A DNA stretch of 64,000 nucleotides from contig NC_089431.1 of the NCBI RefSeq assembly GCF_026210795.1, positions 1,674,001-1,738,000 of the forward strand, written 5' to 3'. A model generated the notes under the pieces. It worked only from the letters and a program-made list of their open reading frames with translations, did no database searches and had not been told where the DNA came from. The stretch comes from Rhizophagus irregularis (Eukaryota). Positions within the stretch are counted from its first letter, which is position 1. Each line of letters starts with the position of its first letter. The position numbers and the translations under genes are program-made. Shown here one piece after another: positions 38,989-61,700 of this stretch.

Positions 38989-39092
38989 GTTAGAAGGTAT
39001 GAGTTGGGTAAAATATAAGAGTTGTTAGTACGAAGATATAAAATTTTCTTTCCGAAAATTTTTGGTCAATAGATCGGCGGTAAGAGATCTAT

Positions 39093-39275
39093 ATCAGTCC
39101 TTATTAAAAAATGCAAGGATACCTGATGATAAGGTTACATGGTCATCAATCCTTGTCGAAAAAATGCAAGGATACCTGATGATAAGGTTACATGGTCATC
39201 AATCCTTGTCGAAAAAATTCAAGGATACCTGATGATAAGGTTACATGGTCATCAATCCTTGTCAAGAAATATGAG
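39093..39275. repeat. 53-bp tandem array of hairpin units; first unit split by the LINE (starts at 30902)
   Basis: ggtcatcaatccttgtcgaaaaaatgcaaggatacctgatgataaggttacat at 39141 and 39194, partial at 39247. Confidence 0.9.
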
Positions 39276-39292
39276 AATACCCAATAAATAAG

Positions 39293-39709
39293 CTACTCCT
39301 GTTGAGTCCATTCGTTCCACTCCCAGTTCAGTCCCCAAGGGTCGCCTCCCCATCTTTGTTCACTTAATGCATGCTCTATGGTTTCTCTCTCTTGGGGGTC
39401 CACGACCATCCCATTCCTAAGCATTTTCTCCATAATATAAAGCTGATCCTCGGTGAGGCGGTCTATCCATCTTTTATAGAAGTCGTTTACATCTTCAAAT
39501 GATATCCAGTCAATATTCCCTTTTTCAAACGGCTTTCTAAGAGCTTGGACATGCCCAATTGTAGTAGCGTAATTTTTCCATCTCTTATATGCTTCTTGAC
39601 GAACCTCCTGCCACCACACACTATCTACTTTACTCGCTGCAATAAGGTCAGTATCTGGGATCTTTGCAACAATGCGTTCGACTATTTCTACTGGTAATCG
39701 GTCCAACAT
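39293..39709 (-). CDS. F-box-like protein
   Basis: N-terminal LDRLPVEIVERIVAKIP..DLIAASKVDSVW. Confidence 0.75.
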   Translation of the reverse strand: MLDRLPVEIVERIVAKIPDTDLIAASKVDSVWWQEVRQEAYKRWKNYATTIGHVQALRKPFEKGNIDWISFEDVNDFYKRWIDRLTEDQLYIMEKMLRNGMVVDPQERETIEHALSEQRWGGDPWGLNWEWNEWTQQE

Positions 39710-39802
39710 GATGTTATGTTACTTATACTATAGCCATCTTCAATTACTGTATGCCCATTACAAATGGATAAAAAATATAAACTAAATTCGTACAGGAGCC
39801 GC

Positions 39803-40273
39803 TTATACAAGAAGTTCTGCTAAGGTTTTCTCAGCCTCATTTATAGTGACAGCTCGCTTTGGGGGACCTGTTAATGAGTCCTTAGTTACATTATAATACA
39901 ACTCGAAGAGGGCCTCAAGTTTGTCTAAAAGAGCTTGTTTATTCTTGTATGATTCACGAATCTTTGCTATCTTAGCAGTATATGCTGCATTATCTGGGAA
40001 GAGTTTTCTGGCCACGAACTTCACATATGATACAGGAGACTTTGCTGTCTGGATTCTCTTGATATACTTCACATGATCCTGGACAAGGTAGCTGGTTTTG
40101 CTAAACCCAGATACTAATGCGACTACTATAGTGTCTTTCAATGCACGGATAATCTTGAGGACAGTTTCATCAGAGACAATGGTGAACTGATTGTGTGATG
40201 CATCATAAATAACTTTATCACTAATGCTGTCAGTGCTGTTAATAATGCTTGCTAATTCGGTATATGTTGACAT
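39803..40273 (-). CDS. Hypothetical protein
   Basis: Intact 156-aa ORF in a co-directional gene run. Confidence 0.6.
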   Translation of the reverse strand: MSTYTELASIINSTDSISDKVIYDASHNQFTIVSDETVLKIIRALKDTIVVALVSGFSKTSYLVQDHVKYIKRIQTAKSPVSYVKFVARKLFPDNAAYTAKIAKIRESYKNKQALLDKLEALFELYYNVTKDSLTGPPKRAVTINEAEKTLAELLV

Positions 40274-40386
40274 GATTCCTTATACTTTTTTGTACTTTGT
40301 AATAAATAGAAATCTTCAAATTGACTTTACATTCAAGCAAGAAAAAATATATATACCTACTGTAAATCCAACCGCATTCTTGGCAA

Positions 40387-42266
40387 TCATGTCCAGATAA
40401 CCTTGTTTGCATTTTTCACATGGCAGTATCCTGCGGTTTCAAACTTGAGAGCTTTCAATGCTTTGGATGCATTTTCTGGACAAGTGATAAGTGTAGGACT
40501 ACTCGGCTGTTCCTCTAGAATAAATCCATCTGTATGGATGCGTCGTACTTTATCCTTATATGGTTCTAATAACTCTGAAGTCGTCTTCCATCCATGTGCT
40601 AATAAGAATGGAGCGATCCTAGGATACTCACCCTTGAAGGGACTACCTGGGTTTGTGAACTGGAATCGCCACTGGTCAGATCCTACTGGTACGATGGAGT
40701 CAAGTGTGTGGCCTTCTGGAAACTTGAATGGATCTGTTTGATCTGTGGTGAGTGTCTTGTAATTGCGTTTTCTCTGGCAGAGTGCTCCCCATAGTGTATT
40801 GAGAACTCTCTTTGCAACACGACCGGCCACGCCACCCTGGTTCTTTATATTGAAGAGAAAGTGGACATACTCACCAAATATTACAGTCCCAGGAATTCTT
40901 GCTTCTCTGTCATATATCAAGGCATTTGGCTTTCCATCCTGGATTAACTGTATATCGAGACCAAGTTTCTTTGCTCGTTGTAAGTCAATGAATGTATAGA
41001 CTCCCTCTTATTCTGTCGGAAGAGAATATCATTACCACTTACCTTGCCCTTGGGCGCTCCCTGGGAGCTAGCACGAAATAATCCATACAAGGCATAACCT
41101 CTATGGTCTACAAAGTCTTTGAGTATTTGAAACTTACCTTGTCGGATTGGAAAGTTTGCATTTGATTGCTGAATACTTGGATACAAACTTGTCACGTCGT
41201 ATTGCCTTCCATAGCCCTTCCATTCATTGTCTGCCCAGATAAGACCTCCCATTATTGCATCACTTATCCACTCTGCTTCGACTGGGTCAAGAGGATCATT
41301 GGCTGGAACCCCTACACTAAACCGTTCAAAAAGCCAGAGTGCAGTTCTCTTGTACGACCAGTTGTGGTAAGATAAGTCAATTCCTAGACCGAACTTCTTT
41401 GTAGCCTGTAGGAAGGAATCCCGCTCTTCATGGATCCTCTGGTATGTTTCCTCAAGTGTTTCATATATTCCAGTTTTACAATTCTTCTCGATAGGGATGA
41501 AGGAGTAACTATCAGAGTTCTTACCTTTCTGAAACTGTCCAACTGTAAGAGACTTAACTGTCTTACCATTGTATATTGTTACTACATTATTAACCCCATC
41601 TTCACGATAAACAAAGGGAGACTTTTGTTTTCTATCTAATTTGCTAGGGTGGAGTCTTCCGGGATTCAGTGCAAGAGAGTAGTGGCCTTCAGACAGGATA
41701 AGTGTTGCACGTCTGTCAGATTTGCTCTTAGAAATTCGAGTGGAATCCCCTACAATATTAAGTGCAAGGCTTCCTGCAAGTTGTTCAACCTTATCCATAT
41801 ATGAGACTGGAACTGGAGCATCACGATTGAGACCTAATGCCTTTTTGATATACTCGGGCTTTTCGATTGACTTTGGCATTTTAGAGAATGTGCCGTAGAT
41901 ATATTTCAGGCGTTCATACAGGCAATCATTTAGCTCCCCGTTGCAACCCCCTGCAACCGGTGGGGCATCTCTCACATAAATTATGAATCGTTCAAAATAA
42001 TCAGGGTCTGCGTCATCCGGTAGTTGTGCTTCGTCGTAGTGGTCCAAGAGTGAGAAGAGGCTGGCTGGTTGGTTTCCTGATGTCCATCCACCGGGTTTCC
42101 AGTTTTCATAGGGGAGCAGGATCTGAAATTTATGTGTCGGATACCGGGATTGGAGTCGCTGTCCAAGTCTTGCTATTGCTCCTCTGGAAAATCTTGCACC
42201 TGAATACTGTAATTCTTTGATATCCGGTCTTGTAGGTAAAGCACGGACAATCTCTGAATAAACCAT
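40387..42266 (-). pseudogene. Short family B DNA polymerase, protein-primed-like, one frameshift near 41005
   Basis: MGGL..YDVTSLYPS, KRVLNTLWG, RIHTDGF; the frameshift-corrected reading gives GVYTFIDLQRAKKLG. Confidence 0.85.
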
Positions 42267-42388
42267 TTGATGTATTTATGAATTGTGTTCAGTTGTAATA
42301 TAGGTTTTTTATACAAAAAATATAAGATAACTAAGAAGTGCTTATCTTATTAAAAGGAGTCAATCTTGCTGCATACACGATCAAGATC

Positions 42389-44971
42389 CTATTCATCCCA
42401 GTCGTCGACAATTCCATTGGCGGCTTCCCATTCACGTTCCATATCAGTTTTTGGACGTTCCTCTGGAATTTCTCGTGCTTTACCCTTATTCATCTTCATA
42501 GTTTCATAACCAGAGGTGGTAGGGATAATCTCGGCATCACGATCCTCCTTGTATACTCTTATTAGATCTGCGAGTTCTTTACGGCTAGGTGTTTTAGGTA
42601 AGTTCCCATTATATTCGATCCAGTCCTTGAAGCGGTCTACTACCTCCCTAAGGTAGTACTGGTACTCGTCCTCAATACGTGTTGTGGGACATTCCTCTAC
42701 TTCAAACGCGAGTATTTCCCAGTCATAGTCATCTGACACGTCTTGGTACTTAGCCCATAAATTCTTACCTGTATTGTAGAGATCATTAAAGACCTGGTCC
42801 TTTGAATTCTTGACCCATGGCTTACGATCCCATCGGTGCCTTTCATGCCAAGTCCAGTGTGCTCGAGTACCTTCCTTTGGTTCAGGGTCCCAGTCAACTT
42901 CTAGTTCTGTGTCAGGTTCTGAGATAGGTTGCTCTTCAGGAGCCGGTTCTGGGTCAGGCTTAGTGACAGATGCAGAAAATTCTGCAGGAGACTCGGGTTG
43001 TTGTTCAGGAGCCGGTTCTGGGTCAGGCTTAGTGACAGATGCAGAAAATTCTGCGGGAGACTCGGGTTGTTGTTCAAGAGCTGGGTTCACAGTTGTAAAA
43101 TCTGAGTCAGATAGCAAGTCATCTAAAACGTCGTAGTCATCATCAGCTTTAAATGCAGGTTCTTCAGCAGGCGGCTCATTTTCTTGATCAGGTTCCTCAT
43201 CAGATAGATAACAGTCCGAGAAGCTATCTATAGGTTCATCAGTATCTGATTCTATAGGAGCTGGAGATTCCTCAGGAATAGGATCCTCATTGATGACAGG
43301 TGCGGGTTTTACCTTCAAGCAATCGGGCTTAAGTGGTACTGGTGGTGGAGTCTTTTTAGTCTCTTCAGTAGGCTTCTTCTCGACAGGAGCGGGTTTTTCC
43401 TCAGCAGGTTTAACAACAACTAACTCCACTTTCTCTTGATCTACTTGCGACTTACTAGCTGGATTATATATATTTGCCAAGAACTTCTCCAAGGCATTTG
43501 GATCAGATGCGGGCTTCTCAGGAGTTTCTATATCTATTCCTTCTATATTGATTTCATCTGTTTCATGGATCCATTTTTTGCCAAGGTATTTCTTGTAAAG
43601 ATCCTCCCTGGATATGCTATATACTCGGGTTAACTTTTTATTTATATAAGTCCGATTACTATTTATACTCAACTCATTTGATAGGATTCTAGAAGCGTTT
43701 ATCTTTGATAATGGTGAGATGCAATGAGTTTCACAGTATGAAGTATATACCCTATAAAATTCTTGAACAGGTAGGTTGGTTATATGATTTTTTACTATGA
43801 GGTAAGTGTCCTTTATGAATTGAAATAGGGGTGGAAGAGTCGATATGATGTGATCCTGCTTAGATGTTGTCATAGGTGGTGGATTCCCATTGAAGTCTGG
43901 GTAAGCGTCTGCAATGGCTCTCAAGTAAGCATAGAATGCCTCACTGGCGCCTGGGTATTTCATAGCGTCACTGAGTTTCTTAAAGTAGTTGAGGTCTCCC
44001 TTGCGGGATGGTGACACATCCAAGAACACTGTACGCCTATCGTTATTCTCCACTCTGAGAGCATTTTCATTAGTGAGTACAATGGTGGATATAAAGTTTT
44101 TGTAATGTGTTGGCGTCTTGTATTTTTCATGGATTTCCATTATATCGCCTGTTACCTTATCCTTCAACGATCGATACAGATTATTCCACTGGCTTTTTTC
44201 TGTAGGCATTTCCTCGAGGAGGAGAAGAACCTTACCCTGTAATTGCCCATTGAAACTTCCAAGAATCGTTTGAGGATCGCTGGTCTTATAAACAAGTTGA
44301 GTACCTAAAACACTACGTTGAATGAAATTTGTTATAATACTCTTACCCCAACCCTGTCCAGATTTCAGGTAGAGAATCGAATACATTTTCCTTCCAGCTG
44401 CCACACCGGCCAACCACTTTATGATATACTCAGTAAGATTCCAATCGCCTGAACACCAGATATCCTTTATGTGGGAGAAGATAAATTTAACCGCGAGGTG
44501 GGTTGTAGATTCAAAAGTGGATATCGGACACAGGATATGGAGGAATCCTGGAAAGATATTGAGATAAAGTTGGCCACCTAGTTTAAAGATACGGGATTTT
44601 TGAGGGTCACAGGTAGCTACACATACAGTACTATATTCGATCATAAACCATTTGTTGATATTAAATTCAACCTTTTGTGAAGGACCCTGTTCAGATTGTG
44701 TGTAAAAGACTTTGGTAATTGGACGGATAAGTTTATTAATATTTTTATCAGGGATGTGCTCGAGGTTTTTGATTTCTGATCGCCACATGAAGACTCCATG
44801 TGGGTTGGAGCAGGGGATAAAGTAACTGCAAAAATAACCTTTAGCTTGATTGAGATCCCTCATATTTTTTGCAGCGTTAATGAGCCGTTTAAGCTCATCA
44901 ATACTAAAAGCCTTCTTCTGTTCACCGAACTTGGGGATAACTTGAGCTTGAGTGCTAGTTTGGGCAGTCAT
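42389..44971 (-). CDS. D5-like/SF3 helicase with acidic Pro-rich C-terminal region
   Basis: SGQGWGKS, FNGQL..LLLEE, VLTN..DRR; 69-bp tandem duplication at ~42935-43076. Confidence 0.85.
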   Translation of the reverse strand: MTAQTSTQAQVIPKFGEQKKAFSIDELKRLINAAKNMRDLNQAKGYFCSYFIPCSNPHGVFMWRSEIKNLEHIPDKNINKLIRPITKVFYTQSEQGPSQKVEFNINKWFMIEYSTVCVATCDPQKSRIFKLGGQLYLNIFPGFLHILCPISTFESTTHLAVKFIFSHIKDIWCSGDWNLTEYIIKWLAGVAAGRKMYSILYLKSGQGWGKSIITNFIQRSVLGTQLVYKTSDPQTILGSFNGQLQGKVLLLLEEMPTEKSQWNNLYRSLKDKVTGDIMEIHEKYKTPTHYKNFISTIVLTNENALRVENNDRRTVFLDVSPSRKGDLNYFKKLSDAMKYPGASEAFYAYLRAIADAYPDFNGNPPPMTTSKQDHIISTLPPLFQFIKDTYLIVKNHITNLPVQEFYRVYTSYCETHCISPLSKINASRILSNELSINSNRTYINKKLTRVYSISREDLYKKYLGKKWIHETDEINIEGIDIETPEKPASDPNALEKFLANIYNPASKSQVDQEKVELVVVKPAEEKPAPVEKKPTEETKKTPPPVPLKPDCLKVKPAPVINEDPIPEESPAPIESDTDEPIDSFSDCYLSDEEPDQENEPPAEEPAFKADDDYDVLDDLLSDSDFTTVNPALEQQPESPAEFSASVTKPDPEPAPEQQPESPAEFSASVTKPDPEPAPEEQPISEPDTELEVDWDPEPKEGTRAHWTWHERHRWDRKPWVKNSKDQVFNDLYNTGKNLWAKYQDVSDDYDWEILAFEVEECPTTRIEDEYQYYLREVVDRFKDWIEYNGNLPKTPSRKELADLIRVYKEDRDAEIIPTTSGYETMKMNKGKAREIPEERPKTDMEREWEAANGIVDDWDE

Positions 44972-45191
44972 TTTTTGTTCTATCAAATCGAGTACTAATT
45001 TATAGTTACCTAATCTTCAATTGCCGAATATTTTTTCCAAAGATCTGCACTCCTACCAGGTTATCCTCCTGTAGTCCTGTGGTCCTGCGATTCTGCGGTC
45101 CTCCGGTTATATCTGGTTATCTTCTAGGGGTAAAAAAAAAAATATAAACCACGAACCTTTACGACTGCTCTAAATCTTCCCTTCCCCTTTT

Positions 45192-45551
45192 TCAAACTAC
45201 ATATATCTGAAATCCAAACCGCTCAAGAGCTCCTTTTACTATAGTTAGCTCTTTTCTAGTGTCCGTTAACTCTTTACAAGCCTTTTGATATGCCTCCCAT
45301 TCAAGTTCACGGAGGATACCCTCCTCATCCAATGATTGGCCAAGAGCATCATTTGCTTTTTCCTTCTTTTCTACTGCCCTGTCGTATGCCTCCTCAGCTT
45401 TTTTATGCCGCTTCCAGAGTACTCGTTCAGCTTCGGCTTTTCAGATTGGGCTGACTTTTAAAAGATATAGCCCGAAATTGCTACTTGGAATGTGTTCCAG
45501 GATATGGCTTACAAGTTCGGGGATTACTGATACTGCGTGCGGGGTATACAT
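45192..45551 (-). pseudogene. Second F-box-like gene (119 codons) with an internal TGA at 45441-45443; absent from the ORF track
   Basis: MYTPHAVSVIPELVSHILEHIP..LLKVSPI*KAEAERVLWKR, similar to the 39293-39709 N-terminus. Confidence 0.65.
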
Positions 45552-45580
45552 GTTATCTGTCCTTATAGGTTACTTATGGT

Positions 45581-46044
45581 ATACCCATTGTTCAATTACT
45601 TATTTTTTCTGATGGGGCGGGACGGGGTTGGTCTTACTGGCTTTATAGACCTTCTAGGGGCTTACCTGCTAACTTATCTGGTTTGCTATCTCATTGCTTC
45701 CAACAGATTATTAGACGGAATCCTGATCATATAACAGAACTATGACAGAATGACAGATCTGGGGGGTAAAATCAAAACTTTTTTCTGGGGATACCCCTCT
45801 CCCGATTTTTCTGAAACGTCTGTCATATCCGTCATATCTGTCATACCCTCTGATTCTATCGTATTTTCCTCTCTTTTCCCTTATTTTATCCTTTTTTAGT
45901 ATATTGTTATATGACTGATGTTATTGACAGATGGTGACAGATATAGGGGATTCCTGATCCCCCGTAAGGGGGAAGGAGGTACTGCGACGGGTCGTAGACC
46001 CGGAGGTGGGTGGTGCTTGCACCTCCCACACCCAGCCCGATGAC
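45581..46044 (-). repeat. Right TIR
   Basis: Inverted copy of 23527-23990. Confidence 0.95.
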
Positions 46045-46645
46045 GCACAACCTTACATATGTCTTCTCTAGATCCACTCCCTCGGAACATGACTAGATGT
46101 GAGATATTTTCACGAATTATCTTTAGTACAGCTTGATATTTCTGAGTTACATATATTGGTGAGATGTTTTGATGCCGACCGCTAATAAAGTAAGGGACGA
46201 TACGTTCTTGTATTTTTTTTGATTCAGCGCAGAGATCTTCAAAAACAATAACAGTGCTTCTTTTTGGGGAGAATTTGCTTATATCTGGAATTTTTTCGGC
46301 CTTTATTGTTTGAAATGAGATATTCTTCCGATATGGGTCAGGGCTATTTGCAAAAATATGGAAAGCATTTTTAACCAGCTCCCATTTAGGCTCAGCATGT
46401 TTTCCAACCAATACGAGGTGATCATTTTTAATATATCTATTCCCCTTCTTGCCTTTAAACATACGCTGAAGTTTGTTGCCAAGAATAAGGTTTATAACCA
46501 TATTAGTTTTTTCACTATGTGAGCCTCCAGTCACTAAAAGGCGAAAAGGCCAATCTGGACTATATTTATTACCCTTCATTCGATCCAAAGATTTTCTGGG
46601 GATCTCATTAACGTTATACACAAAGAATTCCATACAGTATTGCAT
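46045..46645 (-). pseudogene. 5' part of the outer element's A32-like packaging ATPase
   Basis: WPFRLLVTGGSHSEKT (degenerate Walker A), VIVFEDL, GRHQNIS, IIRENI. Confidence 0.88.
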
Positions 46646-46692
46646 ATTATGCCAAAATGAATTTCTTAGCCCAAAAAATTTCTGGGATGGAC

Positions 46693-48345
46693 CTATTCCT
46701 TCGCTTTATCCAAGAATCCTTTCTCGATCAGTGTATGCTTAATGAAAGGCAAAAGGTCACATGTGTATGGCACTTCGATAAGGCATATATCTTGGTTGTT
46801 GCATATATCCCGCTTCTTTTGATCGCGCATATTTTGTGATTTTAGATTTTCATTCCCCCGGTGATAAAAATTATTGTGATGATAGTGTTGAGGACCCTGG
46901 AATTCAAATGCAAGATGCAATTTCTCATTATATCCATCCAAGTGTAGCCCATCTAAGAACTTACCCCTACATGGTGGAAATTTCTTGCCTAACAAATCCT
47001 CAAAAATATATCGTACAGTTCTTTCAGTAGTATGATGGCAAAGAGGACACCATTCAAATTTTTTCATAATATATTTTAATGGATACTCCCACTGATGCGC
47101 ACCATTCTTACAAGACCAAAGATATATGCTATGGCCATTTGTTTGTCCGGTCTTTCCTAGACATTGACCATTGCGCTTCTTAGCATAATTCTTCGCTTGA
47201 TCTAGCTCGCTATTAGTAGGGGAAGCATATGCAATATGTACAGACAATATGCTTTGAGGCGGACGACCAACCCTTTCTGGATCAGCTATTAACATAAGTT
47301 CTTCTCGCACAAACCCGCGAGATGGTGCAAATTCACCATCGAGATAATATAAAACTGGCTCATTCTTTATAACAACAACTTTTTGAATTTTATGAATAGA
47401 AGGCGACCATATAGGGTCAGTTGCTCTTTTCTGATTCTCCATACCCCCTTCCCATTCTGCATTGGCAAGTAGGTAGCGGATAGAATCACCTTTCTTTAAT
47501 GCTATTTCATCTTTTCCAACTGGGCGCTTATATTTTGTAGATGGTTTAGATTCTACTCGATCTAATAATACAATGGCTTTCACTGGCTCGAGTCTCCACT
47601 TTTCTGATCCTGGTTCTCGAATAAGGCGCGTGGGATAATTATTTAGATAATCAATAACTACTGGTATATATCTAACCCATGCTCTTATTAATTGAGGATC
47701 AGAAGTTATTGATTCAATAGCATACTGGATTTTGTATAGAATTTTTGAGAGTGTTTGGTTGAAACGCTCCACAAAAGCAAGTCCTCTATGACTATATGGG
47801 CCAATCACTCGAATTATAACATTGTGCTCTTGCATTAGTCGGGAAGTCTCGCCCATCCATTCTCGCCCATTATCTGTTTGAAGTAATTTAGGATAGGTAA
47901 GAGGATTACTAGGGTCATCATATATTTTCCTAAATGCTTTAGCAACCTCAGAACTTTTCTTCGATCTAAGTGGAACTGAAGCTTTGTATCTGGAGGCACA
48001 GTCTATTATATTAAGCACTGCTTTATATTTTTTACCTCTATAACGATCATGTGTGAGAAATAGTATATCGCACTGATGTACGCAATTGGGACGTGTTATT
48101 CGTCCATAGCTGACTCTAGGGATGTATTTTGGAGAGGTTTTATTAATTTGGTATGACTCTTGATTTTCTAAAAAATCTTTACATTCACTTAGGCGGAATT
48201 GGTGCCCCTCTTTTTTACATACATCTCTTAACGATTTGGGATTAGAATAATAGCCAGTTGGGCGATAATATATTCCACGCAATATGATATTTTTTTCAAT
48301 TCTCTGAGCCTCAATAGGGTCTATCAAGATTTGTGGTTGGCTCAT
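46693..48345 (-). CDS. rve integrase fused to a zinc ribbon and Vsr/DUF559-like endonuclease
   Basis: [68 protein letters not shown]. Confidence 0.85.
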
Positions 48346-48375
48346 TCTGATTCTCTTTTATAATCACAAAAAAGA

Positions 48376-50853
48376 ATGGCATTTCGGAGGCCCCATCTAA
48401 GGCAGAGAAGAACATGTGAAGAATATAAAGCTGAGCTGGAGGAGGAGAACTACCATCTTCGTAGTGAATTGCAAGCAGAAGTTGATAGTAACTGCCAAAA
48501 TGAAAAGCAGATCAGAGAGCTGGAACGTGAATGTGTCCGTTGTGAACAAGAAATCCAAACTCTTAGTGGTGAGATAGAACGTCTTGAGAATGCTTCGAAA
48601 AAGGAGATAGTAGAGCTAAAATCTGAAATTTCCAGCCTAAAAAAGCAACTATATCAAGCTAAGAAGGATATTCGTGATAATGAAAAACATATTTCTAGTA
48701 TAGAGAGTCTGTTAGTAGATTCCGAGGAGCAGGTAGAGAAATTGCGATGCCGAATCAGAACCATCTTATCACGAAAAAATTCACCAGAAAGAGGTAATTC
48801 TCCAGACTTGTATAATTCTGATGATAATATGGCCACAATCACAGAGCTAGCAAATGCTATAGATGGTTATCTGAATAATAGGACAATGACCAGAGATATT
48901 CTAATAGACCAAATTAAAAGGGCGACAAGGCAGATACGTCAAAAAGAGAATAATTTGCATCAGGATTTAGTCTGTGAGCAAAGAAGGCGCTATGATGCAG
49001 AAGGTGAGCGAGATCTTGCTATTACGTGAAGAGATCTTGCTGAAGGTGGGATGGCTAATGTTATTGGTGATCTCCATCAGTTGCGGACCAATGCTCAAAA
49101 CCAGGTAAATAGAATGATAGGTAATATAGCAAGAAAGCAAACCCGTATAGGTGTACTGGTACAAGAAAAATTTGCCTTACAGTTATTGTATCAGCGAAAT
49201 GCCCATCACCTATAGCGATGTAGAAGGGATATGGGTTTATTGGAGTACAATCGTGACAGGCTTTATGAGAGATATGAGAAATGGAAAAATAAGACCCAAG
49301 CAGAACGCCAGAATAATTTAAATTTGCAGGGACAAATTTTGGCGCTACAGAATAACCCACCTAATATACAACAAATAGGAATGGTAGGATATGGACCCCC
49401 AATATTTTATGGACGTCCTGGAGAAGATCCAGAGGACTTTCTCAGAGACTTTCAAAGATATGTAGTAGCTAGTCGAATAAATATAGCTCCTGGAGCAGGT
49501 CAGGTCACCGGAAGAGCGGAGGCTTTAGGTTTATTAATATCTTGCCTTGAAGGACCTGCTAAGCAATGGTATGAAACTAACATCAAAGGCAAGAATTGGA
49601 AATGTAGTAATATCTCAGATAATTTAGGTGTAGCTACTTTAACTGCTGTTCGAGCTTTGGCCGCCGGAAATGGTGGTGGTCAGGTTGGTGCTTTGAATAC
49701 TGCAGGAGAATTTCAAGGTAAGGCGGCCGCCAAAATTGGTAGAATTGGTGCAGGTATTGCAACTGGTGCTAATATTATTCCAAATGGTACTTGGGATGAA
49801 GACTGGTCCATAGCTGGTGGCGAACCTGAAGCTAATGCACCAGTGGTACCTAATGCTGGTGGAGGTTTTCCTGCTGTTACAATAGCACCTAACATCACAC
49901 TTGGTCAACTTATATACTTACTCAATACTGCCTATACAACCGTAGAACATTTAAAACAGACGACAGTTTTCGGTCAGCTCATGCAAGGTGATATGTCAGT
50001 TGAGCAGTTTTCTGCCTGAATTAAAAAGGTTGGTAAATTGGCTGAAATGACTCCAGAACAGCAAAGAGAGCAATTTATTCGTAGCTTAAATCCTATGAAC
50101 CAATATAATATTCGAATGATGGCTAAATTTTATGATACACAGGATAATATTACAAAAGCTCTGGCTGAAGCGGAAAAATTTACATTATCTCAAAAGAGTG
50201 TACCATCTTCTCTTCCTATTTTTCCGACAGCCAATCCATATGCAGATACTAACAGATCAGGGGGTGGGATGACTAAAAATGAAATCGAGGACTTGATAAA
50301 AACCACAATGGCTTCCTCACAGCCTCAAACAGCTTATCAAAATACCGATTTACAATCTTCTATTAAATCATTGCAGGAGACTATGTCTCGAGCGACTAAG
50401 ACTCTAGATAATAGTAAAAAATCGGCCAATAAGAGAGGGGAAGACATTATTAGATGATTTTTAAGTGAGCTACTAAGGACAAAATCAAATAAGCAACCTG
50501 AAGATGATTATAATTATGACCCTGTGGATGATATTACTGACAGTATGGCTGGTATGACACTAAATAGTGCCACAATAAATGCTATCAATTCCGCCGTTAA
50601 AAGTGCCGTTAAGAAAAAATGTACCAAGTATGGTAGATTTGGACATACTTCCTGTAAGTGCCCTCGAAAGAAGAAAAAGAAAAGCAAGAAGTCGAAGAAA
50701 GGTAAGGTCAATCTCGCTATAGAACCAGATTCAGATTCTTCTTCAAACGATACTTCTTCTAGTGATAGTTCTGATTCTGATACAAGTTCCTCTGATTCTT
50801 CCGATTCTGATGGTGATCTTAATGTTCATATAGCTAAGTCAAAAAAAAAGTGA
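48376..50853 (+). pseudogene. Gag-like polyprotein (~825 codons; coiled coil, capsid, degenerate CCHC), four in-frame stops
   Basis: Four track ORFs share one frame; stops at 49027, 49213, 50017, 50455; PIFYGRPGEDPEDFLRDF, CLEGPAKQWY, QGDMSVEQF, QFIRSL, CTKYGRFGHTSCKC. Confidence 0.85.
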
Positions 50854-51933
50854 AGAAGGAGAGTGAATCCGAGAAATTATCCTCTAAAGAGATGTCTAGT
50901 GCCAAGCTGAGAGAAATACCACTAGAGGAGACTATTCGTAAAGTCCTTCATAGTGAGCTTAAACTAATCTTCCCCCACATTTTTTCCAAGATTCTGGTCT
51001 CATTGCGTCCAAACAGATAGTGGCTTCTACGGAGGCAAAGATAGTATCCCAAAATGATGTATCATCATCTTCAAAAGATTCGGATGAGTCCAGTCTGGAA
51101 GAGGAGTCTTTAGATGATCCTATAGAGATCGACTTCGTCAAGAAGAAGGAGCCGAAAACTAGTGTTGCCACTATAAAGTGCAAAATCAGGCGCTTGAAGA
51201 TTCCAGCCATGACTCTAGACTCCAGAGCTGAGCCTCCAATTATAACGAAAAACATTGTTGATCGTACTAAGGACAAAATAGATAAATCTGAAAAACATGA
51301 CCTTAGCGGTGTAGCTACTGTCCCGATTGAATCTATTGGTATTGTCCGCAATCTGCCTATTACTCTAGCTCCTGGGTGCATCATTTATGAAGATTTTGTA
51401 GTTGTGGATTATCACAAGCCAACGCTAATATTTTCTAATCAACTCCTAAAGAAATATGGATGCGCAGTGGATTGGAATACAAATGAGCTAAAGATCCCTC
51501 TTAATGGGAAGGACTATATTATCCCAGTCACTTTCACTGGTAAAAAAATGGTCTATCCTACATATATCCTACATATATCTTACACATATCGGGTACTTAA
51601 AATGTAGAACACAAATAATACACATATCATACACATATCGGGTACTTATATATATAGTATACCTATCAGGTACCTGATATATGTATGATATATATATTAG
51701 TACCCGATATGTGTATGATATGTGTATTATTTGTGTATGATTTTCTACATTTTAAGTACCCGATATGTGTAAAATATGTGTAAAATAAATCATTTTTTTA
51801 CCAGTGTATGCATAAGGTCAAGAACAAGCTTGAGGTGAATTGTGCGACCACTACTTCTGAATGTGATGATCTGTCAACCCCAGACTGCATTTCGCAGGAC
51901 TTAAGTGAGGATGGCGCATTAAAAAAAAAGTGA
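50841..51933 (+). pseudogene. Aspartic protease in -1 frame after the Gag-like ORF; frameshift near 50975 and MITE insertion
   Basis: TLDSRAEPPII (DSG degenerate), LIFSNQLLKKY; resumes MHKVKN.. after 51806. Confidence 0.78.
51535..51806. mobile_element. 272-bp MITE with CACTG ends (CMC/CACTA-like)
   Basis: TIR CACTGGTAAAAAAATG; internal inverted acacatatcgggtact repeats; flanks TTT/TAT (3-bp TSD, one mismatch); removal restores PVT-MHK. Confidence 0.85.
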
Positions 51934-52730: not shown

Positions 52731-53729
52731 ATGACCAATGTGTATACCTTGAAAGATATTAATAATAAAGGTCATCGGCTTGGTAGTGCGTATGAGCAAG
52801 AGCTCGAAAAAAAATTGTATACCACTCTTAGTTCTAAAGCCGAAATTAATGATCTTTGTGAAAAGTTGTTGGCTAAAAATTCAGAGTATTCGGAGCGAGA
52901 GGAGGATATTGAAAATAAGATTAGCCAGTTAAATACGTCCAGTACTAAAGTTAGATCCCAACTCATTTCTGAACGGAAGTCTCATTCTGAAAGTCAACGT
53001 GGACTTGAAGCCAAATATACTGCTGAAATCCAATCGCTCAAATCAGAGATTAAAACACTGAAGAGAAAGGCGACTTTGGCCCAGAAAGCTTCGTCCGCTG
53101 ACAAGGTCCAGATTCTTTCTCTTGAAACTAAAATACGCGAATTGGAAGGTAAGTTGGAGGACATAGATCTAGAGCGTACATATCATGATTTGGATGTAAT
53201 GGGAGGGGTGGTAGAAGAGCCGGCCCAAATAAGCTCATCCGAAATAGAATCTCTCAGGCTTAAATTGGAACGAGCGAATGAGGACCGTAATTCGAAAGAA
53301 TATACAATAGAATATATGGAAAAAGGGATAGAAGCAACACATGAGATAACCAGTCGGAAAATAGATAGCCGGTCTTCAGAACGATTAAAATTAATGGAGG
53401 AAAATAGGTCCCTCAAGGACCAGTTAGCGTTAAAGAAAAATACTTCGTCCCAAATAATTTCAAGTGAGGGGATTCCTTTGGAATCAGGTGGCGCAGAAGC
53501 AGTACCATTGTCCCAAGAAATATCTCTAGCACCGGCTATTCCTGTCGTTGCGAGTTCTCTAATATTGCCGATGATAACATATTCCATGCTTGCCTTACTA
53601 CTGATTGTGGTTATATGGCTCGTGGTCAGGAAATGGTGGAATCTATGGGGTATGAATAAAAAAAATGATCGATATTTCACACACGAAAAATATATAAATA
53701 GGCCAGATATTTATTATCTCAATACCTAA
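52731..53729 (+). CDS. Coiled-coil protein with a C-terminal transmembrane segment
   Basis: Heptad-rich body; ILPMITYSMLALLLIVVIWLVVRKWW. Confidence 0.7.
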   Translation: MTNVYTLKDINNKGHRLGSAYEQELEKKLYTTLSSKAEINDLCEKLLAKNSEYSEREEDIENKISQLNTSSTKVRSQLISERKSHSESQRGLEAKYTAEIQSLKSEIKTLKRKATLAQKASSADKVQILSLETKIRELEGKLEDIDLERTYHDLDVMGGVVEEPAQISSSEIESLRLKLERANEDRNSKEYTIEYMEKGIEATHEITSRKIDSRSSERLKLMEENRSLKDQLALKKNTSSQIISSEGIPLESGGAEAVPLSQEISLAPAIPVVASSLILPMITYSMLALLLIVVIWLVVRKWWNLWGMNKKNDRYFTHEKYINRPDIYYLNT

Positions 53730-54072: not shown

Positions 54073-56999
54073 TATATCAATAAAACTTATGTTTAAAAAC
54101 ACTAGTGATCCATAATAGCCGTTAAGGCGTTTCGCAAAAATAGGCCTTAGCCACGGAGTATATCACATGTTTTTGGCCGGCCCCAGCTGAAAAATACTAA
54201 TGATCATCTCCGGGCATATCCGTGGCCAGGCTATATGATCGGAGGTCAGAAGTTTGAAGATAAAAATTGAAGTTAGCCGGTATTATTGCAAGAGAAAAAT
54301 ATATATATATAAATAATATTGTATGGATTCTTAGCCGGAATTGCCACACCCCGTTAAGAGTACTTAACAATATTATCTATTTAAGTACTTTGCTAGCACC
54401 TCTGACCCAGTTATATCCTCAAGATGGAAATACCATAAATTATTAATGTCGTCTAATGCCCCAATTTCTGATATATGAGGTAAGGCAGGTAGGTCAGCAA
54501 TTATCTCATTTTTTCGCATGGATGAAACTGGGCCGATTTCTTCTGGAATTGATACATGCTCTTTATAACGCATATGATAGACCAATTTGTGAAAGAATAA
54601 ATTATACTCTTCAATACATTTTGCAAGCTCGCTAGGATATCGAGCAAAATCAGAGCATATTTTTTCCCTCATTTCGTCATCTACTGAGAGGTTTTTATCT
54701 TTTGAAATTTTCCTAACGCATTTCATAAATGTCTCCCATAATACCTCGATAGGGTTGCTTGCCATGAAAATCTCATAGCTAAGCCATTTACCATAAAATA
54801 TTTCATATGAACTACCTATCTTTTGATACAACATTTCTTGTGCTTCTATGACAGCGTTTCTATAGGCGCATTTATAAGCATTTCCACGGGATACCATTAT
54901 CTTGGAAGTAATACCATTAACTATGATATTCTCCTTCACAAAACCCTCAAGCCATGATTTGGCTTTCTTTTGAGCATGGTCATCTATTTGCTTATATTTC
55001 TCATCCGGATCCTTAATTTGCATTATTTTATCTGAGGGGGTCGGCTCATGTCTTTTATCATACATGATAAATCGGGCACAGAGACCAATGATAGTTTTTT
55101 CGTAATAATGATATAAATCTAACTCCTTACCCAATTCCTTAGCTACGTCCACAAATTCCATTTTCTCGCCTTTAGTTGGTTCTAACTTTCTACCATGTAA
55201 ATCAAAAGTCGTATCTGGATGAGTTACTACGTAACTAAAGCGCCCACCTGGTACCAGAATCTTAGTATCATATTTTCCTTTCATTCATCCTATAAAACGC
55301 TGAACAGCTTTGTTATCTTTATCAGGTTTCCAAGCGTCAGTCTCTATAAATTGTTCAAAATTCCACTGCTCATGATTAATTATAGCATCCCTGAGAACGT
55401 CTTCAACAATCTCATGGAGTGATTAGACGTTATTAATATCCATAGCCCTTCGCATAATACGATCCATATAGTTTTGAAAACTTGGGATTTACCCTGCTTC
55501 ACAGTATCTATTCCCCTTATAAAAGGCTCTCTTGGTTCGAAGTTAGGAGTCTCTTCATGGTCAATGCCAAAATATTTTTTCTTTTCGGTAAACGCTACTG
55601 GAAATAGTACTTCCTCGTAGGCTATTTTAAGATAATCCGACCTAGTCTTGAGTCTGAGGAAAGTGTTCACATCATTGCGCAATTTTTCCATTACACCCAT
55701 AGTAGTCTTGACCATCTCAGTCCAATACTCTAGTTTAGAGATTTCTCCCTCCCCATCATTATAAGCCAGTTCGTATTTCTCATAGCAGGAATCTGGACAA
55801 ATGAGATATAAGGAATCGGTATCACCGTATTTTATCCTAAAGCCTTTCTTTCTAACGTACTCTGCAACACGTTTGATAATTTCTTGCCCAGCCAAAGTAA
55901 CACCTCCAGCAAGTTCGAGTATGTAGAATGGGGAACCACTTCTGCCCGTCACACCATAGAATGAATTCATATACAATTTAATGGCTTTCTGCTTAGAATT
56001 TAAAGAATCATAGGCAAAGCAGACAGAACTGTATTCTTTTATAAAATTATCATATGATAAATCAATAAAAGGATCTAAGATTTTAACCATCTCAGCACGC
56101 TTCTTCACATTCTTCGTCGAGGACAAAACATCTTTGATTGCGTCCGCTATTGAGATAGATCCGCTGGCATGATCCCAAAGGGATCCATCCATTCTACTTT
56201 TGACCTTTCCCATATATTTCTTTTTCTTTCCAACATCAGCAAGTTTGAAAAGCGTTGATTCACACCAGTATACGCGTTGATCAACACCAGCTAGTTGTTC
56301 AACATGATTAACAATATTAATCAACACCCATATATTGGAGTATATCAGCGCATAATGTTAATATACGCGTCGTTCAACTCTAATTTGTAGTGCAACACAT
56401 TATGCATTGTTGTTCAACGCACTGTATATTAACGCATATATATGATTACATGTGTATATTTTAATTAAATTATATTTATTTATTTATTTTTACTCACCTT
56501 AGGAACCGAACCGGTTACCTCAACTTACAATATCATATCTCACGATCTAACCACTGTACTATTTAATTTAAGTATAATATACATTTATTAAAATTAGTAT
56601 TTAAAAAAAAAATCATTTCGTCAATACTATAATGGCCGTACTCTATATCACATGTATCACGTGATACTGGATTACTGCTGCGGACTGCGGTATAGCAAAA
56701 AAAGAAATTAAGCTTTTTTTAGCAAAGCTTAATTTTTTTTTGCTTTTCTTCGTTCTCTCCTTCCCTTTCGTTTTCCCATTACCCCTTCGTTCTCCCCTTC
56801 CCTTTCGTTTCATTCTTTTCCCTTTCGTTCTCCCCTTTCTCCCCTTTCCTTTATAAAAGTTTTATCCATTATTTCTATAAAAACTCCGTAAAAATGAGCC
56901 TTCACGGATCCATTCACAGAAAATGTAATAAGTGGATAAATTCCGTAATATAAGGTCATTAATTCCGGAGATATGAGCCTTTTACGGAAAAAAGTTTGG

Positions 57000-58010
57000 T
57001 GAGTTTCGCAACGAAACGTTGCGAAACTATTTATTCATTTTTTAACGAAACGTTTTTTAACGTTTCGAAATATTTTTTTAAAAATTCTTTTAATCGGAAC
57101 GTTGGCTAACGTTCCGATTATTTTTTTTATTTCATTTTTAATCGGAACGTTGAAAAACATTCCGAAATATTATTTTTTTTTAAAATTATTTTAATCGGAA
57201 CGTTGGCTAACGTTCTGATTAATTTTTTTACTTCATTTTTAATCGGAACGTTGAAAAACGTTCCGAAATATTGTTTTTTAAAAAATTCTTTAATCGGAAC
57301 GTTGGCTAACGTTCCGATTTTTCATTAAAAATATTTTGAAATGTTTTTAGCGTTTGAAATATTTGTTTTATTTTTTTAATCGGAGCGTTGTCTGCGTTCG
57401 AAATATTTGTTTTTTCATTTTTTTAATCGGACGTTGGCTAAGCGTTCCGATTTTTCATTAAAATTATTTTGAAAGCGTTTTTAACGTTTGAAATATTTGT
57501 TTTATTTTTTTTAATCGAAGCGTTGGTTAGCGTTCCGATTTTTCATTTTTAGCAAAGCGTTTTTTAGCGTTTGAAAATATTTTTTTTTCTTTTTTTTAAT
57601 CGGAGCGTTTTTAGCGTTCGAAACAATTTTTTTTAATTTTTTTAATCGGAACGTTGGCGTTCCGATTATTTTTTTATTTTACTTTTTTAACGAAACGTTG
57701 AAAAACGTTTCATTTATTCTTTTTTTTTAACTTCTTTAATCGGAACGTTGTCTAACGCTTCTGATTTTTTTATTTTTCATTTTTTTTAACGAAACGCTTT
57801 TTAACGCTTTCGAAAATACATTTTTTTTTATTTTTTTCTTAATCGGAACGTTGGCTAACGTTCCGATTTTTTTTGTATTTCATTTTTAATGAAACGTTTT
57901 TTAACGTTTCGAAACTTTTTTTTTTGATTTTTTTTTTAATCGGAACGTTGGCTAACGTTCCGATTTTTTTTATTACATTTTTTAACGAAATGCTTATTAA
58001 CGTTTCGTAA
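57000..58010. repeat. Degenerate array of palindromic aatcggaacgtt..aacgttccgatt units
   Basis: About 20 variants separated by T/A tracts. Confidence 0.85.
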
Positions 58011-58039
58011 TTTTTTTTCATTTTTTTTTCCTTTCTTCT

Positions 58040-58790
58040 TTTAGGTCAGCGGGTGGACTTCCGAGTTCCGAAGAACGGAAAACCAAGATTTGTAAGATAA
58101 GTACGAATCTTGGTTTAATTTTTTTTTTCTTTTTTTTTTAATATTATTAATGAACGGTTACTAATAACCGTTCTTTTCTTTTTTAGGTTTCGGGCGGCTT
58201 CCTGGTTCCGAAGAACGGAAAAGAACCAAGATTCGTAAGTATATACGAATCTTGGTTTTGTTTTTTTTTGTTTTTTTTTTAAAAAAATATTATGAACGGT
58301 TACTAATAACCGTTCTTTACTTCTATTTTTTAGGTTTCGGGCGGCTTCCTGGTTCCGAAGAACGGAAAAGAACCAAGATTCGTAAGTATATACGAATCTT
58401 GGTTTTGTTTTTTTTATTTTTTTTTAATATTATGAACGGTTACTAATAACCGTTCCTTTCTTTTTTATAGGTTCGGGTGGACTTCGGACAAACGGGAGAA
58501 CCAAGATTCGTAAGTACGAGTACGAATTTTGGTTTTTGTTTTTTTTTTAATATTTTGGAACGGTTTACTAACCGTTCCTTTCTTTTTTCTTTTATAGGTT
58601 CGGGTGGGCTTCCCAAGAACGGAAAAACCCAAAGATTCGTAAGAATCTTTATTTTTTTTCTTTCTTTGTTTATTATTATGAACGGTTTACTAACCGTTCT
58701 TTCTTTTTTCTTTTATAGGTTCGGGTAGGCTTCCCAAGAACGGAAAACCCAAAGAATCGGTAAGTTTTGAATAAAACACGTTTTTTATTT
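58040..58790 (+). repeat. Tandem ~130-145-bp units resembling micro-exon plus intron
   Basis: ttag|gttcggg..ccaagattc|gtaag..gaacggttactaataaccgttc..ttag repeated about six times. Confidence 0.75.
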
Positions 58791-61700
58791 TTATTTTTTT
58801 TATTTTTTTTTAATTTTCTCTTTTCTTTTTGTAGGTATCGATTCTTTCGGCTTTGGGACTTGGATATGCCGATATGGTAAGTTTCGATATTCGAAACTTA
58901 CATTTTTTTAATTATTTTTTTTAATTTTATTCTTTAAGAAACGTTCTAACTGAACGTTTCTCTTTTTTGTAGGCCTAGATTTTCTTTTCGGCGCTCTGGA
59001 TTTTTCTTTTGTAGGTCAGCTTGATGGTTATTTCGACCCTTGAGCGAATGAATAATGGAAGATAATTCCTCAATCCTCAATGTGAATATTAAACCACTTG
59101 ATGTTGTTAAGACACATACGACGAGATTTGGTTTTGATTTTTATCATGAAGGAGCATAATATTAATATAATTATCGAGGGAAAGTTCATATTTCCACCTT
59201 GTTATGGTTGTGTCACTAGGGGCGCTATGTCAACGGAATTTTAGTACGTTAATCGCTTAAAAATCCGCGGCAATCCAATTATAACAAGAGGATGAATTTT
59301 TACAATTTTACATGATTAGATATTGTATTTGTATTGTACTGTATTCTATAAATAAATTTACAATGTTTTACAATTTAAAAATTTTAAAATATACACGTTA
59401 ATAATATACAATAATATATATGTTAATAAATTACTAATACTACAATTAAAGTTAACTATCGTACGATGACTAAAAAATACTATTGCTACCATTGCTATAC
59501 GTGTTTTTAATATCAATATACGCGTTTTTATACATTGTATACGCATTTTTAAACTATCGTTGTTTTACTATGTGTAGCTTTACACTTAAATGGGTGTTGT
59601 TTTACACGTTTTTAAACATTTTTAAGTGGTGTTGATTGACAAAGGGTTCGTTTCCCTACGTTTTTTGGCGTTAAGCAACACATGGTGTTTTTCAACACTT
59701 TATACACCTGTTTAAAACTTGCTGATGAATGGGCTTTAGCTGGGCTTTTATTTCATTTCGCATTCTCCCCAATCTCTCCAATATCTTTGGGAAAAGACCT
59801 TTCTGATCAGGCTTATTGCCGTATAGTCCAGGCTCGTATAGGATTACCATTATACTTGAACTCGATATTGTGGAGTACTTTATTTTCTCTTTCTAACTCA
59901 TCTACTTCCGAAAGTGTTGAGACCATCTTCTCGGGTGAGAGGTTGTAAGTCATAATTATGCTAGGGTATAAGGAAGCGAAGTCCAAACCTGTGACAGGAC
60001 GTTTATTTTCGAGACCCTTTACTGGCGGGAAAACATATGCTCCCGGAAACTTCCAGATGCTTTCTGATCGGAAGTTTTCATGCTGAATAGTATGTCCTGG
60101 GTCCATGCTTCAGCACCCAAGAGGTTGGATACTTTTGTCCTTATGGCATAATAATGTGTATCAAATAGAGTTATATATGCTATCGAAGCAACTTCTCTAT
60201 AATCATTTATTATATTATGCCTGACCGCGAGCTCCTGACAACGTAAGGCGTCTATGGTACAGTAATTAGCTATTTCGTGCATATTTTCAGTGGAAGAGTC
60301 TGAAATCCTACCCCTCGCTTCTGAATAGTACTTCCATAATTTGCTTATAGGTAAATCGGCTTTGCTGTCGAGACCACAATCTTCTAAGAAGTATTTGAGT
60401 GATCTTCTCTCTGAACGGGGGAAAAGTTGCAACAAACTCGCGCAAACGTCAATTGGTACGCATCCGGGAAGCTTAAGAAAAGATGATTCAAAGTTCAAAT
60501 TATTGGTACCAAATTTGATGTTAATAGATTCACGACCTTCTGTTCTTCTGAAGTTCCTGTCCGTTTTCTTCGCCCATTGGTCCCTATGAAAGAAACCACT
60601 GCTTAATGGCTTTTCAGTTCCACTGAAATAATTCCAAATGAGGATGGATTGAATATTGGCTGTCTTATGCAGATTTGCTGACATTTGTTGGACCATCCAG
60701 TCGAGAACCTTTAATTTTGTAGCCTTCTCCACTATAAATGGCCAATCATATCCAGAATCGTTAAAGCCAAGCTGGATGTCTGGGGCAAAGATTTCCAACA
60801 TAGAGCAAATGCCTTTAAGAGATTGGTCTGATTCCCGCATATGATGATCATGCAACGTGGATCTGGTGCCGTCTCAACATCAACGAGACGTATTTGTTCT
60901 AGTGGTTTTGGGTCATCTTTCCAGTGAACCATCATACAGATCATAAAAACTTGAGCTGTATCATTTTCTGCTTGTGGGAAATTACCTAACTCACGCGAAT
61001 CGTATGTTTCTATGTCCCATGTTAGAACTAATGCTCGGTCACGAGAAAAGAGAGAAGATGGATAAATTTTATAAAGTGGTTCAAAATCAACTATGGGTTG
61101 GAAATTACCAATGTGAACATAAAATGCATGCGGACAATGTTGGGATTTTGCATAATAAGGTGCACTGAAATTATATTTGTAGTCGCTTATTAACCCCATC
61201 CGGAAAGTGGTATTCTATACTTTCTTGCGACTTTACGGTAATATGTGCCCGTATCATCTGAAGCGGTTTCTATTCTATTTTCTTGATCGACCTTCGAATT
61301 ATAGTTTGAAATGATATTGAGAGCAGTGAACCTTATATCTTTATTAGGTGCAATGATGCGAAGATAAGACTTTTTTTCCGCATGGTAGCCACGAATAGGA
61401 TATGCCTTTATGCACTCCCTTCAGATCAGATTCATGTTTACTCTATTCCCCTGGCTGTCTTTTTTAGTAGCGAGTAAGTGCTTTATTTTGGACCAGAATT
61501 TAGGAATACTTGCATTTTCAGGAACGCGAATATCAAAAAATATCTTGATACTAGTAATGGTGACGACTGCCTTCTGGCCATTAACGAGATGTCCATAGAT
61601 TCGAAGAACATAATGGGGGATTTTATTAACATTCTCTTTGGCTTCTTCTATGTCGTATGACACGAATGGAATATCTCGACGATTCGCTATCTCAACTTTG

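Follow-up and report, generated by a model that had tools for sequence, protein, structure and literature searches.

A 64,000-nucleotide stretch of the Rhizophagus irregularis genome (NC_089431.1, positions 1,674,001 to 1,738,000; hereafter the window) contains two nested mobile elements in which a retrovirus-like Gag and aspartic protease (Gag-Pro) are encoded together with a DNA polymerase, an integrase and an A32-type packaging ATPase. This Gag-Pro set is very probably a conserved and selected part of DNA elements that lack reverse transcriptase (RT). We further consider it fairly likely that intact copies replicate as DNA, enclose this DNA in a shell made of Gag and integrate anew, with Gag-Pro replacing a jelly-roll capsid. 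Packaging of DNA in a retrovirus-like shell is likely because polymerase, integrase, packaging ATPase and Gag-Pro occur together, with neither an RT of their own nor a DNA-virus coat gene.

To the right of a separate, ordinary Gypsy retrotransposon at 3.5-15.1 kb lies a nest of elements, in which a Maverick/Polinton-type element (the inner element) sits inside a second one (the outer element; Table 1). A preliminary description of this DNA had presented 46045-51933 as a divergent second element repeating a module of ATPase, integrase and Gag-Pro. The genes are as it claimed, but the interval is only the middle of a larger outer element of ~15 kb (later insertions removed), which extends from ~19.3 kb to at least 62.3 kb of the window. 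Its two gene orders also stand, with ATPase(-), integrase(-) and Gag-Pro(+; 48376-51933) in the outer element and integrase(+), Pro-Gag(-) and ATPase(+) in the inner one, and the copies are indeed divergent (Gags 30% identical over 181 aa, E 1e-12; ATPases 42%). It had missed the outer element's own asfarvirus-like DNA polymerase and the inner element that splits the outer ATPase.

The inner element is bounded by 464-bp terminal inverted repeats (TIRs; 23527-23990 and 45581-46044) that are 97.6% alike. Its termini read GTC...GAC; Polinton termini read AG...CT. These ends are true termini of a multi-copy family, because run X1 yielded five contigs with differing flanks at each of them. The gene content comprises DUF5679, an integrase with a chromodomain, Gag-Pro, an A32 ATPase, small open reading frames (ORFs), a protein-primed-type family B DNA polymerase (PolB) as well as a D5-like helicase. 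The DNA_pol_B_2 and rve matches are both below the curated cut-offs and lie in broken frames. Frame breaks in the inner Gag-Pro are private to the window copy, and other copies differ at those points. The sole RT within either element is that of a long interspersed nuclear element (LINE), which has its own 15-bp duplication. No jelly-roll major capsid, penton or cysteine protease gene could be recognized from sequence, and outside the LINE there is no unassigned ORF >192 aa between the TIRs; the largest gap is 610 bp once later insertions are removed. The inner element is of Maverick type, with Gag-Pro replacing the usual virion genes. Three 53-bp tandem copies (39106-39269) and an F-box-like ORF (39293-39709) were also seen inside it.

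The outer ATPase gene is split by the inner element: homologues match 46633-46040 and resume at 23525-23382, with no break of frame at the insertion site, and the whole ATPase comes to 251 aa. Its Walker A motif is GGSHSEKT (GKT to EKT), and GSSxSGKT is found in 105 of the best 120 of 386 ATPase homologues, which are inner-type; judging from this motif, the outer ATPase of the window is likely inactive. The outer integrase carries at its C-terminus a zinc finger and an endonuclease-like domain (PHROG endonuclease families, E 3e-15 to 1e-5) and no chromodomain; a DUF4379 match is weak. Four small ORFs lie between Gag-Pro and PolB, and the gaps between genes in the stretch from Gag to PolB measure 5-301 bp. 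The window copy is dead, with four stops in Gag, the altered Walker A, a protease motif changed from DSG to DSR, a miniature inverted-repeat transposable element (MITE) in the protease, which according to 3/4 runs is missing from other copies, and a 3.5-kb insertion in PolB.

In a Pfam-type family scan that covered 41 window ORFs, no RT or jelly-roll capsid gene was recognized in the outer element, and no long terminal repeat (LTR) was found in it. The largest outer gap is 387 bp with later insertions removed, and unassigned ORFs across both elements span 103-332 aa. All ORF space is thus accounted for without a capsid-sized unassigned gene, which supports Gag-Pro as the capsid. The left limit of the outer element was estimated from contig ends and depth and is not exact; on the right, where the read evidence extends to 56400, the terminus may be eroded or fall outside the window. 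A small Cys/His-rich ORF (61995-62306) is probably the last gene. Just past it, at 62350-62760, a cluster of GTCCTAGTT / AACTAGGAC motifs occurs in both orientations and is a candidate MITE, origin or subterminal region.

Gag-Pro: capsid fold, insertion and selection

The outer Gag consists of a coiled coil, a capsid N-terminal domain (NTD) with an insertion, a C-terminal domain, a zinc knuckle and a basic/acidic tail. The sequence features that the preliminary description had reported for both Gags were recovered. Six-frame translation of the 64 kb contains exactly two instances of GKNW-x2-SNI, one per Gag (49588 and 27489), and R-x-x-L-x-x-E-L-K lies upstream of both proteases (50937 in the outer, 26025 in the inner element) and was not found on the local Gypsy coding strand. 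As it had also stated, the capsid insertion is missing from the local Gypsy Gag, which has ~20 residues at its place (hhalign probability 91%, both flanks aligning). The outer and inner insertions align with a score of 81, compared with 32+-6 in composition-preserving shuffles (0/2000 as high); without the first 8 residues the score is 57, and 2/2000 shuffles are as high.

Structure comparisons with the model of one relative (P0012; pLDDT 63.8) returned only retroviral and retrotransposon capsid domains in the top 35 rows (Z 9.4-5.5), among them HTLV-1 CA (Z 9.4, rmsd 3.2, 80 residues aligned) and PEG10 (Z 9.2, rmsd 2.7, 85 aligned). For the model of the window NTD plus insertion, the top 33 rows were likewise all capsid domains (Z 6.3-3.8). 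These matches skip the insertion, because the 53-100 aligned residues are too few to include it. Pfam Retrotrans_gag is found in 6/31 Gag relatives. According to the models, Gag has a retroviral capsid fold, which we accept despite middling Z-scores because the uniform structure lists, the Retrotrans_gag matches and the hhalign match agree. When solved structures were searched by sequence with a profile of Gag, only low-complexity matches came up, and an atlas search with the insertion was uninformative (best 0.77).

Gag is under purifying selection. In a metagenome scan with 11 loci (all <2 kb and carrying no synteny information), dN/dS of Gag was 0.16-0.41 in 11/11 loci and that of the insertion 0.12-0.34 in 10/10 measurable loci.

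In both elements, the protease lies in the -1 frame after an A9-G-stop that closes Gag, and the same signal is present in loci L002 and L005. A -1 slippage at the A9 run would presumably yield Gag-Pro. Downstream of three A-runs we found no stable RNA fold (z -0.95, 0.58 and 0.02). A second A9-G-stop was noticed at the protease end (51920-52058), where the -1 frame opens a short ORF resembling the N-terminus of the 332-aa membrane protein encoded downstream; the DNA at 51940-52012 and 52798-52870 matches at 74%. A lysine pair forms the end of 43/59 Gag-Pro records. This second signal is possibly a second frameshift, at the place where RT once followed.

A quick tree of 87 capsid regions with a midpoint root contains many lineages intermediate between the inner and outer types. 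It leaves out four related Gags whose insertion is shorter. P0443, P0454, P0463 and P0488 are further coiled-coil/Gag/protease proteins that end past the protease and have a shorter, different insertion; the family may be wider. The outer Gags (relatives P0001, P0030 and P0037 of 48376-50853) are also mosaic: P0001 and P0030 are near-identical in the coiled coil and behind the capsid and only ~44% alike in capsid plus insertion, and capsid domains seem to have been swapped between copies.

It is extremely unlikely that the two Gag-Pro sets are remnants of RT-deleted or non-autonomous Gypsy elements that landed independently and are carried passively. Their capsid core does resemble that of the local Gypsy Gag, RT-less LTR derivatives are common, and monophyly with respect to RT-bearing Gags is only weakly addressed by the tree. 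However, no LTRs or target duplication surround either Gag-Pro, and the insertion and the A9 frameshift signal are common to both. A continuum of insertion-bearing Gags joins the two types, and Gag is under purifying selection. The integrase points away from Gag instead of lying downstream, and the outer integrase resembles the inner one (24% identical, E 2e-13) more than it does the Gypsy integrase (E 2e-5).

Recurrence of the gene set and the outer polymerase

Neighbourhoods elsewhere were inferred from adjacent accession numbers and matching contig sizes, not from DNA. The preliminary description had asked for linkage to the ATPase at other loci, and this holds directly for the inner family, at five other loci where Gag is 1-2 accession numbers from an ATPase; for the outer family it would follow from gene counts. 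Among the inner pairs, which were chosen for equal-sized contigs, 4/5 are two numbers apart and the fifth is in a different number series; a sixth, unchosen Gag/ATPase pair is adjacent. At least 13/29 inner-Gag contigs of >=10 kb match the size of an ATPase contig among the best 120 of 386 ATPase hits (at least 3/12 for contigs under 100 kb).

In the outer family, 4/6 listed PolB records >1000 aa have a Gag-family record on the same contig, 4, 5, 5 and 12 numbers off, and 2/6 have no Gag partner among the records listed. One 26.5-kb contig repeats the window order (integrase PKY57253, Gag PKY57254, PolB PKY57259), and integrase and Gag are adjacent also as PKB97302/301. On a contig of 68.6 kb, the record of the leftmost outer ORF (P0320) and that of an outer-type Gag differ by 4 numbers; by this count the interval would hold exactly three genes, as many as separate the two here. 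A cluster member of the accessory ORF at 22823-23326 shares a contig with an outer integrase. The outer ATPase itself is not in the protein collection, and outer-type ATPases are not among the best 120 of 386 hits. In Rhizophagus clarus gene models P0026 and P0049, a segment homologous to the accessory ORF is fused to Gag, and in G. cerebriforme model P0056 a segment homologous to the 332-aa coiled-coil protein follows Gag-Pro. No family could be named for the latter protein, and an atlas search returned only generic coiled coils (best 0.90).

Scoring of 7997 candidates gave 59 hits to Gag, with relatives in Rhizophagus, Entrophospora, Gigaspora, Cetraspora, Acaulospora and Glomus, and the Gag profile has 205 representatives at E up to 1e-30. 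Among the protein records, 0/275 of the Gag family match RT, RNase H or integrase, and 56/59 of those with a protease motif end <=170 aa past it, although an RT in a split ORF would go unseen. Scans of viral contigs with Gag and with PolB found no relative, nor did a scan of prokaryote genomes; the viral-contig scan with the ATPase found three distant loci without a Gag or integrase match. That the set is a conserved module and not a chance retrotransposon remnant, as had been proposed, is borne out by the recurrence of Gag-ATPase and Gag-integrase-PolB combinations together with purifying selection.

The outer PolB is a DNA_pol_B with an exonuclease domain. Its full-length homologue P0278 has 8ywg as best solved match (E 4e-209), the next polymerase type following at 5e-20, and 8YWG occurs in a cryo-EM paper on the African swine fever virus polymerase (PMC11417396). 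Asfarvirus-like polB genes have been reported in R. irregularis by Gallot-Lavallee and Blanc (2017), by Gong et al. (2020, PMC7017919; 'fundsbetavirus') and by Zhao et al. (2023, PMC10640383), who count 15-33 copies per genome at variable positions; the dispersed copies were taken as traces of giant-virus infection (PMC7017919, PMC10640383). Four rows of the supplementary PolB alignment of Zhao et al. are near-identical to the N-terminal region of the outer PolB, which by its sequence belongs to these dispersed 'orphan asfarvirus polB' copies. In their main text, Zhao et al. use none of the words Gag, integrase, Polinton and Maverick; here the polymerase lies within a 15-kb integrase/Gag element.

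Could the outer element be no single unit, with PolB and the small ORFs left over from an asfarvirus-like giant-virus provirus and lying by chance beside a Gag-integrase element? The asfarvirus-like PolB, the presence of an asfarvirus-related giant insertion in one R. irregularis strain, the negative search for shared outer termini and the two long PolB records without a listed Gag partner would fit such a juxtaposition. The order integrase-Gag-...-PolB nevertheless recurs on separate contigs, the genes are tightly packed, and no giant-virus major capsid protein (MCP), RNA polymerase subunits or VLTF3 were found among the 41 scanned ORFs, the D5-like helicase being confined to the inner element. 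We regard a chance juxtaposition as very unlikely.

As a separate observation, a Funneliformis geosporum record falls in the 90% cluster of the outer PolB (54373-55284; P0275), and the R. clarus Gag-Pro P0317 is 80-94% identical to the outer one; horizontal movement between fungi is possible on these similarities.

Proposed DNA packaging and known systems

In the cycle that we propose, an integrated copy would be released and replicated with the PolB that it encodes; the outer type would depend on a host or helper for primase and helicase, because none was found in it. Translation would give Gag by itself and, where ribosomes slip by -1 at the A9 run, Gag-Pro. Gag would then build a Ty3/Arc-type shell with the inserted subdomain at its surface or as a docking site for the ATPase, the protease would trim this shell, and the ATPase would load the ~15-kb DNA. 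Particles could move in the shared hyphal cytoplasm, and the integrase would insert the DNA at a new site. Gag-Pro would thus take the role that jelly-roll capsid and cysteine protease have in Polintons, in a set paired with two unrelated polymerases. We infer every step past the gene content, including packaging, particles and loading.

Several points weigh against such packaging. The established partners of A32/FtsK-type pumps are jelly-roll capsids, a Gag shell normally forms by co-assembly with RNA via the zinc knuckle, and we know of no ATPase that fills a Gag shell. The zinc knuckle (CCHC) is kept in the outer Gag and none is found in the inner one, and the protease motif of the inner family is DTC, not DTG. 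The VIA Z-scores are middling. The single RT-bearing Gypsy outgroup in the 87-row tree forms a long, unplaced branch, too weak for monophyly of the insertion-bearing Gags, and the absence of RT from Gag protein records says little because the local Gypsy too splits Gag, protease and RT into ORFs. Linkage of the outer-type ATPase beyond the window would rest on gene counts, and outside R. irregularis adjacency comes from three fused gene models only, in R. clarus and G. cerebriforme. In the outer element we found no primase or helicase, and a comparison of 19.1-19.8 kb with 62.3-64 kb gave no TIR or target duplication above shuffles, inverted or direct.

The main alternative, though somewhat unlikely, is that Gag-Pro is selected in these DNA elements but does not package DNA. 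It could form RNA particles or granules, shield replication or act against Gypsy elements, with the ATPase working elsewhere or with a capsid supplied in trans. The CCHC knuckle of the outer Gag is typical for RNA binding, a Gag shell filled by an ATPase would be without precedent, and the genomic evidence (recurrence and selection) is equally compatible with a Gag-Pro of this kind. On the other hand, Gag-Pro sits where capsid and protease genes are missing, beside an ATPase, in two families with unrelated polymerases. Zhao et al. (PMC10640383) moreover did not find an MCP gene in any of five R. irregularis genomes, so that there is no known helper capsid.

Returning to DNA packaging in a Gag shell, the overall working plan is Polinton-like. 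Like Polintons/Mavericks, the inner element has long TIRs, a short duplication, an RVE integrase with a chromodomain, a protein-primed PolB and an A32-type ATPase; unlike them, it has Gag-Pro, and no jelly-roll major or minor capsid or cysteine protease was found in it. The outer element shares the RVE integrase and A32-type ATPase with Polintons and differs in its PolB, which is not protein-primed, and in that no TIR was found. With Ty3/gypsy (Metaviridae) they share a two-domain helical capsid, an aspartic protease and a frameshift-type organisation, and the outer Gag also the zinc knuckle. In contrast to Ty3/gypsy, no RT/RNase H (outside the LINE) or LTRs were found, the integrase is on the opposite strand and upstream of Gag, the capsid NTD has a 105-residue insertion, and a DNA polymerase and an ATPase are present. 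The only LTR pair in the window is that of the separate Gypsy. Caulimoviruses have DNA-containing capsids of Gag type and require RT. The outer element shares its PolB type with Asfarviridae/Nucleocytoviricota proviruses, but core genes were not found and its length is ~15 kb compared with >100 kb. It would work in a Maverick-like manner, yet fits none of these three families (Polinton, Ty3/gypsy, Asfarviridae/Nucleocytoviricota). To our knowledge, no known virus has a Gag-type capsid without reverse transcription, and A32 pumps are likewise linked to capsids of the jelly-roll kind.

Jelly-roll capsid, penton and cysteine protease genes are present in most, not all, Polintons (PMC4028283). Mavericks have been reported in R. 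irregularis (Glomus intraradices) and are expanded in Glomerales (PMC11952901, PMC8647823, PMC11296320), and in fragmented assemblies their A32 ATPases have been noted as Maverick-related (bioRxiv 10.64898/2026.06.19.733378). In Starrett et al. (2021, PMC8502044), the Fig. 5 legend gives the labels 'Matrix/Capsid/NC/Pro', a Gag/retropepsin set, and S3H helicase for a 'related element' among protein-primed PolB elements. The inner type may therefore have been drawn there already, without discussion in the section text; the outer type differs from that element, as the legend alone describes it, in its asfarvirus-like PolB. The accessible text of PMC4028283 and PMC11075540 holds no Gag-related content, and a full-text literature search, outside subscription papers and Repbase, found no paper joining an asfarvirus-like PolB to Gag-Pro, integrase and ATPase.

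Evenly balanced, in our view, is the broader proposal that Glomeromycota host integrating dsDNA viruses with their own DNA polymerase, no reverse transcription and an A32 ATPase filling a Gag capsid. In these the set would have moved between Polinton and asfarvirus-polymerase replicons, the latter explaining most orphan Rhizophagus polB. If true, one capsid type would have replaced another across two virus realms, giving a hybrid of retroviral and jelly-roll virion systems, and the 15-33 dispersed polB copies per R. irregularis genome may largely represent a 15-kb mobile element and not ongoing giant-virus infection.

Feature coordinates and neighbouring sequences

Table 1. Features of the outer and inner elements, in positions of the 64,000-nucleotide window (a point marks features without strand).
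Feature	Position	Strand	Remarks
Outer leftmost ORF, ~248 aa, function unassigned	19677..22436	+	P0320 maps to 19677-19789 and 21753-22433; split by later 2-kb insertion
Later insertion	19784..21793	.	53-bp imperfect inverted ends; other copies lack it; run X13 contigs join 19781/19782 to 21793/21794
Outer accessory ORF	22823..23326	+	Homologous segment fused to Gag in R. clarus models
Outer A32-type ATPase, C-terminal part	23370..23526	-	Homologue residues ~181-228 match 23525-23382
Inner Maverick/Polinton-type element	23527..46044	.	22.5 kb, ~14.4 kb without LINE; 5-bp target duplication GCACA at 23522-23526 and 46045-46049
Inner RVE integrase with chromodomain	24395..25486	+	rve weak (E 0.003), Chromo E 2e-17; one internal stop
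Inner Gag-Pro	25512..28413	-	Coiled coil, insertion-bearing capsid, stop after an A-run, aspartic protease in -1 frame
Inner A32-type ATPase, intact	28445..29668	+	Pox_A32 E 4e-12
Later LINE insertion	30921..39092	-	RVT_1 and endonuclease; 15-bp duplication at 30906 and 39093
Inner protein-primed-type PolB, two frames	40387..42266	-	DNA_pol_B_2 E 1e-4, polymerase motifs
Inner D5-like / superfamily 3 helicase	42389..44971	-	DUF5906 E 6e-17, Pox_D5 weak; PHROG DNA primase families
Outer A32-type ATPase, N-terminal 199 aa	46045..46645	-	Pox_A32 E 5e-9
Outer RVE integrase, 550 aa	46693..48345	-	rve E 2e-8; D-D-E present
Outer Gag	48376..50853	+	825 codons, one frame, 4 internal stops; 87% identical to open 797-aa P0001
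~105-residue capsid NTD insertion	49588..49902	+	Predicted ordered subdomain; model pLDDT 87.9, pTM 0.83
A9-G-stop closing outer Gag, predicted -1 ribosomal frameshift	50841..50853	+	Same signal in inner Gag, loci L002 and L005
Outer aspartic protease region	50850..51933	+	94% identical to R. clarus P0317 either side of MITE; broken by frame change and MITE
Later CACTG-ended MITE	51535..51806	.	Apparent 3-bp duplication; contigs in 3/4 runs join 51531 to 51807
Outer 332-aa coiled-coil protein	52731..53729	+	A single C-terminal membrane helix is predicted (residue 280, hydropathy 2.69)
Outer family B DNA polymerase, asfarvirus-like, not protein-primed	54373..61888	-	7 pieces over residues 1-1283 of 1284-aa P0278, 81-97%
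Later AT-rich insertion in PolB gene	56234..59727	.	Short inverted ends
Small Cys/His-rich ORF, putative last outer gene	61995..62306	+	Exact sequence absent from protein collection

The AT-rich insertion in the outer PolB gene is without a long ORF. It contains arrays of short palindromes at 57.0-58.0 kb and tiny exon-like repeated units bounded by AG/GT at 58.0-59.0 kb.

The local Gypsy has LTRs at 3464-4700 and 13859-15095 that are 99.8% alike, and its Gag, protease, RT-RNase H and integrase are each encoded in an ORF of their own. At the end of the RT-RNase H ORF (10414-12495), residues 490-630 match a P-loop domain of thymidylate-kinase type (E 2e-4), which is unusual on a retrotransposon. 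N-terminal to its capsid domain, the Gypsy Gag (6272-8350) has ~700 acidic residues with several Cys-x2-Cys pairs.

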